64,000 nt of DNA, from positions 1-64,000 of the forward strand of contig CAJFSS010000007.1 of the NCBI GenBank assembly GCA_904419745.1, in the 5' to 3' direction. Source of the stretch: Candidatus Pseudoruminococcus merdavium. Its GTDB lineage: Bacteria; Bacillota; Clostridia; Oscillospirales; Ruminococcaceae. The notes below the pieces were generated by a model. The model was given only the letters and a program-made list of their open reading frames with translations. It searched no databases and was not told where the DNA came from. Made by a program: the position numbers and the translations under genes. How positions within the stretch are numbered: position 1 is the stretch's first letter; every line of letters begins with the position of its first letter. This document shows, piece after piece, positions 20,232-25,770 of the stretch.

Positions 20232-20381
20232 TCACAACACCAACCACAATGCCTGCACCGTTCGCATTGATAATACCGTAAATTTTTCTAGGTTCTCCAT
20301 CCTGCTTTTCTTTATATAAAGAGTAAATCCTGGCCCCAGAATCAACAGTCCTATGAGGAACGCCACCGCGTTATACATCAT
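20232..20381 (-). CDS. Putative 49-aa small membrane protein, translationally coupled to the P1B ATPase: MMYNAVAFLIGLLILGPGFTLYIKKSRMENLEKFTVLSMRTVQALWLVL
   Basis: Its ATG overlaps the ATPase TGA stop as ATGA. It has one clear hydrophobic helix. Short and unverified. Confidence 0.3.
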   Translation of the reverse strand: MMYNAVAFLIGLLILGPGFTLYIKKSRMENLEKFTVLSMRTVQALWLVL

Positions 20382-22249
20382 GTTCGCTTTTTCCATTTCA
20401 GTAAAAATGCAGAGTTGATGATCACGAGGACAGATCCGGTGTTGTGGACCAGTGCGCCGACTACCGGGTTTAAGACACCGGTAATCGCCAAAATAATCGC
20501 GGCAAAGTTTAGGGCCATAGAAAACGTGAGATTGCACTTAATAGTCACCATCATCCGCTTGGAAAGCGCCAGCAGATGTGGAAGTTCCTTGACCTCATCA
20601 TCCACAAGCGCAATATCCGCCGCATCCACGGCGATATCACTGCCAACGCCGCCCATCGCAATGCCGATATTCGCTTTTTTCAGTGCCGGGGCGTCGTTGA
20701 CCCCGTCCCCAATCATACAGACGGATTGTCCCTGTTTTTGACAGCTTTCAATAAAACGAAGTTTTTCTTCCGGCAGGCAGTCCGCATGTACTTCCTCAAT
20801 GGAAAGCTGCCCGGCGATGGTTTTCGCAGCACTTTCATGATCTCCTGTGAGCAGTACCGGCGAAACGTCGAGGCCAATCAGCCTGCGCACCATTTCCCCG
20901 CTTTCCGGACGCACGGTATCCGACAGTGCAAGAAATCCCGCTGGCTGCCCATCCACTGATAAATAAATGACCGTACAGCCCCGGTCATCATATAGCTTTC
21001 CGGATTCTAGTAAAGAGGGAACGGAAGTCATCCCTTCCCTGGCAAGCAGCTTGCGGTTTCCCGCAAGAATCCGTCTACCCTGCACAACTGCCGCGACGCC
21101 CTGGCCGGGGATCATCTGGAATTCCTCTGTCTGCGGGAGTTCTTTGGAGATTTCCTGTCTACAGCAGCGCACCACCGCTTTGCCCAAAGGGTGTTCGGAA
21201 CGCTGTTCCGCCGCCGCAGCGAGCAGATAGAGTTCTTCTCTTGCCAAACCCGGCAGAATGCTCTTCACCTCGACCACCTGAGGCGTCCCATAGGTCAGCG
21301 TTCCAGTCTTGTCGAACGCAATTTTAGAGACCGAGGCAAGTCGTTCCAATGCATCGCCTTCTCGTACCAGAAACCCGTGTTTGGTTGCATTTCCAATCGC
21401 CGCCATAATGGCGGTCGGTGTTGCCAGAACCAGCGCGCAGGGACAGAAGACGACCAGAATGGTCACCGCACGGATGATCTGTCCACTGAAAATCCAGGTC
21501 AAGGCAGCTGCTGTCAGTGCGATAACAACAATCCAGGTTGCCCAGCGATCCGCCAACCCGACGATTTTCGCCTTGCCCGCGTCCGCCGACTGTACCAGCC
21601 GGATCATCCTCTGGATAGAACTGTCCTCCCCGACCTTTGTTGCCCTCATATCAAAAGAGCCGAACTGATTGACCGTCCCACTGGAAACTTCATCCCCAGC
21701 ACTTTTGTCTACCGGAAGGGATTCTCCGGTCATCACCGCCTGGTTAATGGAGGTCTGTCCGGACAGGATCACCCCGTCCACCGGGATGGTTTCGCCCGGC
21801 AGCACACGGAGAATATCCCCCACGCAAACCTGCTCCGCCGGGATCACGGTTTCCTGACCTTCAGAAATCACTCTTGCCGTGCGCGGCGTCAGGTGGACAA
21901 GTTTTTCAATCCCTGCCCGCGCTTTCGCTACGGTCAAATCTTCCAGCAGCGCGCCGAGCTGCATGATAAAGGCGACTTCACCCGCAGCAAAATCCTCCCC
22001 AATAATTACCGAGGCAATCAGTGCCAGTGAAACCAGCACGTCCGCTTTGATGTCAAAGGCGGTGACAAGCCCAATCACTGCTTCCAGGATAATCGGGATT
22101 CCACACAGAATAATCGCCACCCATGCCGCATCAAATGGGAGTGGAATCAAATCTAGCATACTGACAAGCAGCGCTATTCCGGAAATCACCAGAAAGGCGA
22201 TATCCTTTTTGGTTCCTCCAATTTCAAGAAATTCTTCCAATTTTTCCAT
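20378..22249 (-). CDS. heavy-metal-translocating P1B-type ATPase lacking an N-terminal HMA domain (CPC motif)
   Basis: 623 aa. Motifs DKTGTLT, GDGVNDAPAL and the transmembrane CPC (VVFCPCALVLATP). The protein begins directly with transmembrane helices. The last helix reads HNTGS, where Cu-type ATPases have MxxSS and Zn-type have DxG. Confidence 0.85.
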   Translation of the reverse strand: MEKLEEFLEIGGTKKDIAFLVISGIALLVSMLDLIPLPFDAAWVAIILCGIPIILEAVIGLVTAFDIKADVLVSLALIASVIIGEDFAAGEVAFIMQLGALLEDLTVAKARAGIEKLVHLTPRTARVISEGQETVIPAEQVCVGDILRVLPGETIPVDGVILSGQTSINQAVMTGESLPVDKSAGDEVSSGTVNQFGSFDMRATKVGEDSSIQRMIRLVQSADAGKAKIVGLADRWATWIVVIALTAAALTWIFSGQIIRAVTILVVFCPCALVLATPTAIMAAIGNATKHGFLVREGDALERLASVSKIAFDKTGTLTYGTPQVVEVKSILPGLAREELYLLAAAAEQRSEHPLGKAVVRCCRQEISKELPQTEEFQMIPGQGVAAVVQGRRILAGNRKLLAREGMTSVPSLLESGKLYDDRGCTVIYLSVDGQPAGFLALSDTVRPESGEMVRRLIGLDVSPVLLTGDHESAAKTIAGQLSIEEVHADCLPEEKLRFIESCQKQGQSVCMIGDGVNDAPALKKANIGIAMGGVGSDIAVDAADIALVDDEVKELPHLLALSKRMMVTIKCNLTFSMALNFAAIILAITGVLNPVVGALVHNTGSVLVIINSAFLLKWKKRT

Positions 22250-22265
22250 TGGATTCCCTCCTTTT

Positions 22266-22306
22266 ATACCTATAGGGGTATATGTTTATTATACGGGTGG
22301 GGGTAT
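22266..22306. promoter_or_regulatory. Promoter (TTGACT, 18 bp spacer, TATAAT on the minus strand) with two degenerate CsoR-like boxes (ATACCTATAGGGGTAT and ATACGGGTGGGGGTAT), upstream of the HMA-less ATPase
   Basis: The half-sites ATACC and GGGTAT match the CsoR boxes upstream of csoR at 25424..25465. One box lies in the promoter spacer and the other just downstream of the -10 element. Confidence 0.45.
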
Positions 22307-22408
22307 TGATAAGTCAAGGGAAACATTTGTACAGCTAAATCCTTTGGCGAACAAAAAATCTCCCGGAACATGCAAATCGTGTCCGGGAGATTTCTTCTGG
22401 GTATCTCT

Positions 22409-25045
22409 TTATTCTGCAGTACAGCTGACCGGGGTGTACCCCGCTTCAGTGACCGCATCCATCAAAACTTTGTCATCCACCTCTTTGGAAAGGGAGACTG
22501 TCGCCTTTTTGTTCTCCAAATCCACAACCGCCTCGCTTACGCCATCGACAGCGGCAAGGGCCTTTTGTACATGTGCCTGACAATGTGCACACATCATGCC
22601 GTCTACAACCAATACTTTTTTCATAAAGATCATTCCTTTCTCATGTTCCACCGGTTGTGCACCGGTTTCAAGGGGATTATTATCTTCCACCGCCGGCAAT
22701 ACTGCCGGGATTTCAGCATGGGGATTGTGCGTATCCTGTCCCTTCTTTTTGAAAAAGCGCAGGCGCAACGCATTCGTAACAACGCAGACGGAACTCAGGC
22801 TCATCGCCGCGGAGCCAATCATCGGGCTCAATCGCAGGCCAAAAGCCGGGAACAGGGCGCCCGCCGCCACCGGAATGCCGAGGATGTTGTAAAAGAATGC
22901 CCAGAACAGGTTCATGTGGATGTTGCGCACCACCGCCCGACTGAGATCAATCGCGTTTGCCACATCATCCAGGGAATCCTTCATCAAAACCACGTCCGCG
23001 GATTCAATTGCAATGTCCGTGCCTGCGCCGATAGCAATACCAATGTCCGCACGGGTCAGGGCCGGAGCGTCGTTGATGCCGTCACCGACCATGGCAACCT
23101 TGTGACCCTGCTCCTGCAAGGCACGGATGTTGGCCTCTTTTTCCGTAGGCAGTACGTCCGAGATGGCCCGCTCAATACCGAGCTCTTTGCGGATCGCTTC
23201 CGCCGTCACCCGGTTGTCCCCGGTCAGCATGACAACATGTAATCCCATCTGAGCAAAGCGTTTGATAGCTGCACGGCTGGTATCGCGGATGGTATCCGCT
23301 ACTGCGATGATCCCCACGAGTTTTCCACCGCGTGCAAAGAGTAACGGAGTCTTGCCCTCCTGCGCCAGGCGCGCTGTCTGCGCGCGTGCCTCTTTTGAAG
23401 CACCATCTTCCGTTAGCAAATGATTTTCCTCCAAAAACGCAATATTTCCGGCAAAATATTCCTGACCGCCCACTTTTGCACGGATTCCACGTCCGGAAAC
23501 CGCTTCAAATTCCTCTGCCGCAGGCAAAGAGAGGTTTTCCAGCTTTGCACGTTCCACAACCGCCTGGGCCAGCGGATGTTCGCTGCCCATCTCCGCAGCG
23601 GCGGCTTCTTTCAAAAATTCCTGCTCGCTCAAAGTGGAATCCAGTACCACAATGTCCGTGACGGACGGGTGCCCAGAGGTGATCGTCCCGGTTTTGTCCA
23701 GGACAATCGTGTCAATGTTATGCAGATTTTCCAAACTCTCCGCAGATTTTATCAAAATTCCCATCTCCGCCGCCTTTCCGGTTCCGACCATGATGGCGAC
23801 GGGTGTGGCAAGCCCCAGTGCGCAAGGGCAGGAGATGACCAGTACAGCAATGGCATTGGACAGGGCAAATTCAAACCCCTGACCGGCAAGCATCCAAATC
23901 ACCGCGGTTAAAATCGCAATCCCAATGACGACCGGGACAAAAATCCCGCTAACACGGTCTGCCAGGCGCGCAATCGGTGCTTTGGAGTTGCCCGCTTCGT
24001 CCACAAGGCGGATGATCTGTGCCAGCGTGGTATCTTCTCCGACTTTGGACGCTTGAAAACGGAAGGTACCGTTTTTATTGATAGTTGCAGAGATTACCGT
24101 ATCCCCGGCTTTTTTCTCCACAGGGATACTCTCTCCGGTAATCGCCGCCTGATCCACATATCCGTGACCTTCAGTAACAACACCGTCCACTGGAATTCCT
24201 TCTCCTGGACGGATTACCAGGATATCCCCGGCGACGACCTGCTCCGCGGGGATGATCTGTTCTTCTCCGTTTCGGAGGACAACCGCTGTTTTGGGAGCAA
24301 GATCCACCAGCTTGCCGAGCGCATCCGAAGTTTTGGATTTGGAACGTGCTTCAAGATATTTTCCAACCGTAACCAGCGTCAGGATCATGGCCGCGGATTC
24401 AAAATACAGTGCATGGGCGTATTCGTGGACGACCGCCATGTCTCCGTGTCCAAACCCATAAGCCATGCGAAACATGGCGAACAACCCATAAACCAGGGAC
24501 GCCCCGGAACCGATTGCCACCAGCGAATCCATGTTGGGGGCACGGTGGAACAGGGATTTCAGACCATTTTGAAAAAAGTGCCGGTTGATAAACAGGATGG
24601 GCACTGTAATGATCAGCTGCAAAAGGGCGTTGACAAGCGTGTTCTCCATGCCAACCAAAAAGGATGGCATCGGCAGGTTCATCATGCCTCCCATCGCAAC
24701 ATACATCAGGGGGATCAGCAGGATAATGGAGGCCACAAGCCGGTGTTTCATGCTTTTCTGGCTTTCTTCCGCCTGTTCCTTTCTCATCTGCCATTCGCTA
24801 CGGAATCCCCCTTCTTTTGCCCGTGCCTGGTGTTCCAGAGAAGATGCGCCGTAACCGATTTCCCTGACCGCACCGATAATGCTCTGCGGATCAAGAGCGG
24901 ATTCATCATAGGTCACCGTCATCTGGTTGGCAAGCAGGCTGACGTTGACGTCTTCAACCCCATCGAGTTTTTGTACACACCGGGTAACATTGGCCTGACA
25001 GGCCGCACAGGTCATCCCGGTCACATTATACTTTTCTGTTTTCAA
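22409..25045 (-). CDS. copA: copper-translocating P-type ATPase CopA with an in-frame C-terminal CopZ-like HMA domain
   Basis: 878 aa. N-terminal HMA domain GMTCAACQ, transmembrane CPC, and the Cu-type signatures YN...MSLSS in the last helices. After the last helix comes a linker of about 40 aa and a 71-aa HMA domain (MKKVLVVDGMMCAHCQAH...) with no stop codon in between. Confidence 0.85.
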   Translation of the reverse strand: MKTEKYNVTGMTCAACQANVTRCVQKLDGVEDVNVSLLANQMTVTYDESALDPQSIIGAVREIGYGASSLEHQARAKEGGFRSEWQMRKEQAEESQKSMKHRLVASIILLIPLMYVAMGGMMNLPMPSFLVGMENTLVNALLQLIITVPILFINRHFFQNGLKSLFHRAPNMDSLVAIGSGASLVYGLFAMFRMAYGFGHGDMAVVHEYAHALYFESAAMILTLVTVGKYLEARSKSKTSDALGKLVDLAPKTAVVLRNGEEQIIPAEQVVAGDILVIRPGEGIPVDGVVTEGHGYVDQAAITGESIPVEKKAGDTVISATINKNGTFRFQASKVGEDTTLAQIIRLVDEAGNSKAPIARLADRVSGIFVPVVIGIAILTAVIWMLAGQGFEFALSNAIAVLVISCPCALGLATPVAIMVGTGKAAEMGILIKSAESLENLHNIDTIVLDKTGTITSGHPSVTDIVVLDSTLSEQEFLKEAAAAEMGSEHPLAQAVVERAKLENLSLPAAEEFEAVSGRGIRAKVGGQEYFAGNIAFLEENHLLTEDGASKEARAQTARLAQEGKTPLLFARGGKLVGIIAVADTIRDTSRAAIKRFAQMGLHVVMLTGDNRVTAEAIRKELGIERAISDVLPTEKEANIRALQEQGHKVAMVGDGINDAPALTRADIGIAIGAGTDIAIESADVVLMKDSLDDVANAIDLSRAVVRNIHMNLFWAFFYNILGIPVAAGALFPAFGLRLSPMIGSAAMSLSSVCVVTNALRLRFFKKKGQDTHNPHAEIPAVLPAVEDNNPLETGAQPVEHEKGMIFMKKVLVVDGMMCAHCQAHVQKALAAVDGVSEAVVDLENKKATVSLSKEVDDKVLMDAVTEAGYTPVSCTAE

Positions 25046-25060
25046 AAGAGATCCTCCCCT

Positions 25061-25402
25061 CTATTTAAGCCTTTTTATCAGTTCCACGGCTTCCTCAATC
25101 ACCTGGGTATTCCCTTTCTGCACTTCCTCAACCACACAGGTTTCCAGGTGACTCTGCAAAACCAGATACCCAAAGGATTGAAGCGCGCTTTCCACTGCGG
25201 CAACCTGCATCAGGATATCCCCACAATAGCGGTTATCATCCAGCATTTTACTGATACCGCCAAGCTGCCCGACCATCCGTTTGATACGGTTTTGCAGCAG
25301 GGTCAGTTCCCTTCCACTGCGGGGCGTCGCCTTGTGGTGACAGGGACATTCGCGCTGCTGCCCGGGGGCATTTGTCTTCTTTTCCTGTTTTTCCATCTGC
25401 AA
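25061..25402 (-). CDS. csoR: CsoR-family metal-sensing transcriptional repressor
   Basis: 113 aa with a CsoR/RcnR helical-bundle pattern (C-H-C metal ligands; ...YCGDILMQVAAVESAL...). Encoded directly upstream of copA. Confidence 0.85.
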   Translation of the reverse strand: MQMEKQEKKTNAPGQQRECPCHHKATPRSGRELTLLQNRIKRMVGQLGGISKMLDDNRYCGDILMQVAAVESALQSFGYLVLQSHLETCVVEEVQKGNTQVIEEAVELIKRLK

Positions 25403-25423
25403 GCCTCCTCAAAATACCCGATA

Positions 25424-25465
25424 GGGGTATTTCGTTTTCTCTATTATAATACCCCCTATGGGTAT
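25424..25465. promoter_or_regulatory. Two canonical CsoR operators, ATACCC-GATAG-GGGTAT and ATACCC-CCTAT-GGGTAT, flanking a TATAAT -10 element upstream of csoR-copA
   Basis: Both boxes are perfect 6-N5-6 inverted repeats and match the known GC-rich CsoR operator architecture. They lie 22 and 47 bp upstream of the csoR start. Confidence 0.7.
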
Positions 25466-25770
25466 TTTCAACCCCCTTTTGAAAAAAACTTTACTTTTTT
25501 ACTGGGAATTCCTTTTTCTTCTTTCTTCTCCACCTGATTGCCATAGATTGAGTATGGGAGATTTTTTAGCCCATTTTTTAAAGGGATACACATACCAAAA
25601 TCTTATAATCAGCACCATTTGACAGGTAAAACCTTTCCAGTTATGATGATGACAGATAAAAATCAAAAAAAGAGGGATTTTTGTGAAAGAGATGCGCAGA
25701 AAAAGGGCAATTGCTACCCGTTTGGGAATACTGTGTGGAGGTGAAAGCTAATTCAAAAGGAGAATCTATT

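Follow-up and report, generated by a model that had tools for sequence, protein, structure and literature searches.

Copper pumps need a cytosolic chaperone, which in the copZA and csoR-copZ-copA operons of B. subtilis and E. hirae is encoded by a separate gene, copZ, upstream of copA. For E. coli, Meydan et al. 2017 and Drees et al. 2017 reportedly described frameshifting as the source of CopA and CopA(Z). According to PMC9548414 and PMC7558416, a programmed –1 frameshift allows E. coli copA to encode the chaperone CopA(Z) in addition to the pump CopA. Here, we analyze copA in a 64,000-nucleotide (nt) stretch of DNA from Candidatus Pseudoruminococcus merdavium (contig CAJFSS010000007.1), to which we refer as the window; all copA features lie on its minus strand. 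The reading frame of this gene continues past the last transmembrane helix into a C-terminal HMA domain, and an internal Shine-Dalgarno (SD) sequence and an ATG codon are found at the start of this domain. Based on a comparison with related loci, we consider it likely that this one gene gives rise both to a pump that carries a tethered HMA domain and, by in-frame internal initiation, to a free CopZ-type chaperone.

The proposed arrangement resembles E. coli copA in that one pump gene would give rise to both a Cu(I) ATPase and a free HMA chaperone, which are co-regulated and need no copZ beside the pump. In E. coli, however, the chaperone is the N-terminal domain and results from frameshifting at the slippery sequence CCCAAAG and premature termination, whereas in the window the chaperone would correspond to the C-terminal domain and arise from a separate initiation event in the same frame. 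The heptamer CCCAAAG is absent from the minus strand in 22409..25045; other slippery heptamers were not searched for. With the copZA operons of Firmicutes, the locus shares a CsoR-type repressor, an MxCxHC CopZ-type HMA chaperone and a P1B-1 pump whose N-terminus carries an HMA domain, but here copZ would be located at the 3′ end and inside the copA frame. Bacterial isoforms that arise by in-frame internal initiation include IF2-alpha/beta (infB), ClpB-80 and CheA-S, and others are covered by Ribo-RET surveys. As in these cases, an SD sequence and a start codon inside a longer open reading frame (ORF) would give a C-terminal fragment in the same frame as a second protein. Unlike them, the nested product predicted here is a complete autonomous domain of a family usually encoded by separate genes. 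In CopA of A. fulgidus, a second HMA domain likewise follows the last transmembrane helix, besides the one at the N-terminus; to our knowledge, no internal start has been reported for this second domain. This C-terminal domain (PDB 3FRY) is only weakly related in sequence to the domain in the window (E=1.5e-4), and A. fulgidus has a separate CopZ, as stated in PMC11970713. No PDB chain combining a CopA core with a C-terminal HMA domain was found. Our literature searches did not turn up any earlier account of a C-terminal CopZ with an internal start; since their coverage is incomplete, prior work is possible.

The copA product of the window is one continuous polypeptide, in which an HMA domain at the N-terminus is followed by the pump core, a linker and a further HMA domain at the C-terminus (Table 1). 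Its P-type core consists of an E1-E2_ATPase domain (residues 249-427, Pfam E=2e-60) and a HAD hydrolase domain (residues 444-667, Pfam Hydrolase E=6e-36), and a second Pfam HMA match covers approximately residues 812-871. P1B-1 ATPases are characterized by the metal-site signature CPC, YN(x)4P and M(x)2SS of the P1B classification. The CopA translation contains this Cu(I) transmembrane signature as CPC (...VISCPCALGLATP...), YN(x)4P (...FFYNILGIP...) and M(x)2SS (...AAMSLSSVCVV...). The protein scores 594.8 in the copper-translocating subfamily model TIGR01511 (NCBIfam; cut-off 397), whereas the score of 711.9 for NF007952, the E. coli-type CopA equivalog, is below its cut-off of 1316. By these profile scores, it is classified as CopA at the subfamily level and not as the E. 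coli-type equivalog.

The original prediction described an ORF that runs from the last helix through a Pro/Ala/Glu-rich linker into an HMA domain of 71 amino acids (aa), with a ribosome-binding-like motif and an ATG at the start of this domain and no intervening stop codon. Our annotation confirms this description. The last transmembrane helix ends ...NALRLRFFKKKG, the linker comprises 38 aa, and there is not a single stop codon between the helix and the C-terminal HMA domain, which lies 3′ of the helix on the same polypeptide. The motif AGAAAGGA is located 9 nt before the ATG, and the junction reads GAG AAA GGA ATG ATC TTT ATG AAA AAA on the coding strand. The N-terminal peptide of the proposed free chaperone would be MKKVLVVDGMMCAHCQAHVQK, with or without the initiator Met, while the tryptic peptide of the fusion is GMIFMK/K....

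Fusion of the two parts is a conserved property of this protein family. All of the 120 best protein homologs (80-100% identity) are 863-883 aa long, with a coverage of 99-100%, and several assemblies, obtained independently from an uncultured Bacillota bacterium, contain an identical 878-aa protein. In a species scan with one genome per species, relatives of the C-terminal region occurred in at least 582 species genomes, mostly Clostridia, and the best 80 loci were compared. They derive from Oscillospiraceae, Lachnospiraceae, Christensenella, Flavonifractor, Eisenbergiella, Hathewaya, one Selenomonadales metagenome-assembled genome (MAG) and one Flexilinea MAG; because these loci share descent, a count of 80/80 does not stand for 80 independent events. 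Transmembrane helix 6 (TM6), linker and HMA domain share one frame in all 80 species loci. The linker is hypervariable and cannot be aligned between clades: it spans 18-79 aa after ...RFFK, and more than 130 aa in one locus (L065). It is open in the copA frame in 80/80 loci, compared to 31/80 and 18/80 in the other two frames, and its stop codons number 0 in the copA frame versus 87 and 153 in the other frames. Orthologous loci had been suggested as a place to look for a stop codon between copA and copZ, but no relative with a true stop codon at this junction was found. Thus, the genuine CopA-CopZ fusion that had been offered as one possible reading is borne out, but given the number of species genomes with relatives of the C-terminal region, it cannot be called unusual in bacteria.

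Two seemingly unfused genes were followed up and rejected. A 64-aa “copper chaperone” of Firmicutes bacterium CAG:170 (P0290) appeared to be a separate gene overlapping the copA stop codon (ATGA). Three other assemblies, including that of NCBI, have one more A in a homopolymer, which brings TM6 and the HMA domain into a common frame; what had been called as a gene of its own stems from N-runs, contig ends and a frameshift-ridden long-read contig, and we regard it as an assembly and annotation artefact. The second candidate, P0272, is a contig-edge call on a fused gene. In both cases, a contig end or N-run is located just upstream of the junction, and the gene caller chose the internal SD and ATG as the start. 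More generally, public calls of 64-190 aa annotated as “copper chaperone” or “Cu-exporting ATPase” (L082-L095, L084, L099-L101) are often 3′ fragments of fused copA genes that arise from contig ends, N-runs or homopolymer frameshifts. In an uncultured Ruminococcaceae (UMGS553; L008, 1734-4372), a frameshift in the pump core divides copA into two overlapping ORFs, owing either to a pseudogene or to an assembly error; the junction is intact.

For the comparison of the junction, the 80 loci were anchored on the start of the C-terminal domain. The internal start codon is ATG in 80/80 species loci. Information content peaks at positions –17 to –10, corresponding to AGAAAGGA, within an otherwise unconserved linker, and base frequencies reach 0.70-0.95 there. 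Even the third codon positions are kept, with A at –13 in 0.88 and A at –10 in 0.84 of the sequences, while the third position of the invariant Gly in GMMC reaches only 0.42. The junction Gly codon is mostly GGA (third-position A in 84% of loci), a codon that makes up 22% of the Gly codons in these genes. The purine motif is covered by 42 distinct four-residue contexts and persists in shifted frames where the residues differ, for example as GAA AGG AAG (ERK), GAA AGG ATT (ERI), AAG GAG GAT (KED), GAA AGT GAG GAG (ESEE) and AGA AAG GAA (RKE, L065). Because the purine run is retained in other frames with differing residues, the alignment indicates that the SD sequence is conserved at the nucleotide and not at the protein level.

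The aligned spacing between SD and ATG is 7 nt in 64/80 loci and ranges from 6 to 10 nt. Calculated energies for the duplex with the anti-SD sequence are –9.2 kcal/mol or lower in all loci, with a median of –10.4 kcal/mol at the junction. By comparison, 1846 other in-frame internal ATGs from 81 related copA genes have a median of –3.0 kcal/mol, and only 1.4% of them reach –10.4 kcal/mol, so that the coincidence of SD and ATG at the junction exceeds what chance would give. The SD sequence at the start of copA itself (median –10.7 kcal/mol) is comparable to the internal one. The surroundings of the internal ATG are also poor in structure: within 50 nt centered on it, the GC content is 0.39 versus 0.58 gene-wide, the folding energy is –2.5 versus –12.8 kcal/mol, and in 74/75 loci the region ranks among the 10% of gene windows with the least structure. 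In the sequence of the window, both the SD and the AUG are unpaired in the centroid fold. Taken together, these features of the junction correspond to the standard hallmarks of a region where bacterial translation starts: within a longer ORF, an SD is followed at functional spacing by a start codon, and both are conserved beyond what coding would need. The ribosome-binding site had been called vestigial, a term that no longer fits a site whose SD and ATG are kept at the nucleotide level across 80 species together with other hallmarks of a start region. Internal translation of a separate CopZ, also raised in the original prediction, gains comparative support from the conserved SD and ATG and the open structure, and it stands as a prediction drawn from sequence.

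A similar picture emerged for more distant clades. Among cluster representatives at 50% identity, each of 35 diverse CopA proteins with a C-terminal HMA domain has a Met at position –8 or –9 from GMxC; several internal HMA repeats of multi-HMA proteins have none at these positions. Among 108 fragment clusters that extend from TM6 to the HMA domain, the Met is at –8 in 101 and one or two residues away in five, and the two exceptions have GTG, a valid start codon, and ATC, respectively. In four more distant clades, AAGGAG, AAGGAGG, GAGGAAAAAG or GGAGGA precedes the ATG by 6-9 nt, and these loci also adjoin csoR. As a separate observation, five small proteins with two HMA domains (P0126, P0185, P0194, P0232 and P0255) have a Met after a Lys/Glu/Gly-rich stretch directly before the second domain. 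Nested internal starts may therefore exist in other HMA fusions as well.

The C-terminal domain is unambiguously assigned by its sequence: its 71 aa, taken by themselves, match Pfam HMA at E=5e-15 and contain the metal site GMMCAHC, in agreement with GMxCxxC. Over residues 1-65, it shares 58% identity with a genuine stand-alone HMA protein of 72 aa, whose gene follows scpB on a 163-kb contig and is preceded by an SD of its own. Its identity to the HMA domain at the N-terminus of the same pump is only 38%. Based on these identities, we assign it to a chaperone-type lineage and do not regard it as a duplicated pump domain. The cut-offs of curated CopZ models are not reached (NF047957, 67.0 versus 85; NF033795, 53.8 versus 91; NF033794, 53.4 versus 95). 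Genuine stand-alone copZ genes of the same HMA subfamily are found directly downstream of scpB on two related metagenomic contigs (L081, 4001-4219; L085, 306-518), preceded by GAAGGAGG or AAAGGAGG. Another feature of the domain is an extra Cys (22421-22423, minus strand) four residues from the C-terminus (...GYTPVSCTAE), which is invariant in the close clade (GYTPVSC) and absent in the Flavonifractor-type clade (GYEVVSI). It might serve as a third copper ligand or a redox site.

Several observations weigh against the two-product interpretation. The linker and HMA coding regions of these GC-rich genes contain further anti-SD matches that are about as strong, and the junction match is the strongest one in only 49/80 loci; for this reason, SD strength was dropped as a stand-alone criterion. 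In AT-rich clades with Lys/Glu-rich linkers, the purine richness could partly be compositional. The contig on which ATC replaces the ATG has a coverage of 1.8x. Our search for another copZ covered 64 kb of the genome, so that a stand-alone copZ may exist elsewhere in it, and related genomes have such a gene beside scpB. Finally, the nested product is postulated from sequence comparison. Since SD strength alone is not diagnostic, the case for an internal start is based on the position of the site, the ATG, the spacing, the conservation of third positions and the low degree of structure.

Four other explanations were considered. A sequencing or assembly error, or a very recent stop loss, that joined separate copA and copZ genes has a negligible probability. 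Homopolymer errors do occur in the assemblies of some relatives, and beyond this we found no direct support for such an event. On the other hand, the identical 878-aa protein comes from several independent assemblies, the gene is fused in 120/120 best homologs and 80/80 species loci, and the sole apparent unfused case is an artefact. The universal fusion and the invariably open linker frame thus exclude this origin for practical purposes, and the fused polypeptide appears to be under selection. A maintained fusion would still leave room for an HMA domain that is made only within the pump, as in A. fulgidus CopA, with the SD and ATG as functionless relics of a separate copZ. Such a scenario would agree with the universal presence of the fused ORF, and stand-alone relatives of the domain with similar SDs make an origin by fusion plausible. 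Nevertheless, we regard it as unlikely, because a neutral relic should have decayed: the flanking linker can no longer be aligned and ranges in length from 18 to over 130 aa, and the third positions of the HMA domain are near random, yet the 8-nt motif, the spacing and the ATG persist in 80/80 loci, even at third positions and where the frame is shifted. The AT-rich pocket has likewise stayed open.

Conversely, free CopZ could be the only selected product of the 3′ region, with copA read-through into the HMA domain tolerated but without function. PMC11970713 is in line with this idea: for A. fulgidus CopA, it states that activity is unchanged when the metal-binding domains are mutated or deleted and that free CopZ delivers Cu(I) to the transport site, which the isolated domains cannot do. 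With so many insertions and deletions in the linker, however, one would then expect stop codons or frameshifts to arise often and without harm, and the complete lack of either in the copA frame of 80 species, against 87 and 153 stop codons in the other frames, makes this possibility very improbable. The motif could also be a protein feature (Lys-Gly-x3-Met) or an SD-like pause site that aids membrane insertion or folding, and not a start site at all. Most close relatives indeed read (E/Q)-K-G-x-x-x-M, and SD-like sequences have been proposed to slow elongation, although this is contested. We nonetheless consider such a role highly improbable: the motif survives with differing residues and in a shifted frame (ERK, ERI, KED, ESEE, RKEV), the codon choice (AAA GGA) is fixed beyond the need for particular amino acids, and a pause would leave the invariant ATG at canonical spacing and the unstructured pocket unexplained.

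The interpretation that we favor, one gene with a fused and a free product, suggests the following course of events. Copper would release CsoR from the promoter and thereby derepress csoR-copA, so that pump and chaperone could rise together from a single transcript. Initiation at the start codon of copA, which is TTG in the window, would produce the pump of 878 aa, with a regulatory HMA domain at its N-terminus and a tethered one at its C-terminus. Ribosomes binding at the internal AGAAAGGA would start at the in-frame ATG and produce a free CopZ-like chaperone of 71 aa, which would bind Cu(I) in the cytosol through its MxCxHC site and pass it to the pump. The ratio of chaperone to pump would be set by the two initiation sites. 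The primary start codon of copA is GTG or TTG in 24/70 relatives (TTG at 25043-25045, minus strand, in the window), compared to ATG at the internal start in 80/80; this difference would fit a lower initiation rate for the pump than for the nested chaperone. We infer that the short protein is made and acts as a chaperone, while the tethered copy would have a regulatory or delivery role of its own. If only free CopZ delivers Cu(I), as described for A. fulgidus, the free form would be functionally meaningful.

An unannotated copZ is probably nested at the 3′ end of copA in hundreds of Clostridia and some other Bacillota, internally initiated alongside the fusion. If this is true, these organisms use a second, independently evolved route to obtain a pump and a chaperone from one gene, which would account for the lack of a copZ next to copA in many of these genomes. 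Provided that the internal start is used, a large group of gut anaerobes would solve the “missing” chaperone problem of E. coli from the opposite end of the gene. It would also mean that a widespread small protein has been missed by annotation, which lists only a “heavy metal translocating P-type ATPase”. In addition, the locus would provide a clean natural example of a gene retained in two forms, fused and free, and a simple system in which to separate the contributions of tethered and free HMA domains to pump regulation.

Table 1. Features of the csoR-copA region in the window.
Feature	Position	Strand	Description
Promoter-like site	25412..25471	minus	TTGAAA-17-TATAAT (25471..25443) with CsoR-operator-like ATACCC...GGGTAT palindromes; consensus match, putative function
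csoR-type copper-sensing repressor	25061..25402	minus	113 aa, first gene of the operon, Pfam Trns_repr_metal E=8e-26
copA	22409..25045	minus	P1B-1 Cu(I) ATPase, 878 aa; TTG start, GGGGAGGA before the start
N-terminal HMA domain	24851..25030	minus	Residues 6-65, GMTCAAC, Pfam HMA
Linker	22625..22738	minus	38 aa, Pro/Ala/Glu-rich, QDTHNPHAEIPAVLPAVEDNNPLETGAQPVEHEKGMIF
Internal Shine-Dalgarno AGAAAGGA	22634..22641	minus	Complementary to the 16S rRNA 3′ tail ...CCUCCUUUCU
Internal ATG	22622..22624	minus	Proposed start of nested copZ, 9 nt downstream of AGAAAGGA
Nested copZ frame / C-terminal HMA domain	22409..22624	minus	71 aa (22412..22624), MKKVLVVDGMMCAHCQ...SCTAE, GMMCAHC; stop codon 22409..22411
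Intrinsic terminator 3′ of copA	22346..22396	minus	Hairpin with a stem of ~17 bp, followed by a U run

With csoR located directly upstream and a terminator hairpin following the copA stop codon, the predicted operon is csoR-copA, without a separate copZ. The near-consensus promoter upstream of csoR-copA overlaps the ATACCC...GGGTAT palindromes. Matches of the csoR product to the NCBIfam models RicR, FrmR and RcnR are below the respective cut-offs. The terminator has a folding energy of –24 kcal/mol (z = –3.7), and none of 200 shuffled sequences folds as well. No promoter-like site was found near the copA/copZ junction, although an internal promoter may still exist. A search with a profile built from the C-terminal domains gave no other HMA ORF in the 64-kb window, and a stand-alone HMA gene is present within 4 kb in only ~5/80 loci.

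A second P1B ATPase of 623 aa, without an HMA domain, is encoded just downstream of copA (20378-22249, minus strand). Its TM4 contains CPC, and its last helix contains HNTGS. Its gene has its own near-consensus promoter, TTGACT-18-TATAAT (22262-22317, minus strand), flanked by ATACCCC...GGTAT palindromes. Because these palindromes resemble those at the csoR-copA promoter, both pumps may be under the control of CsoR.

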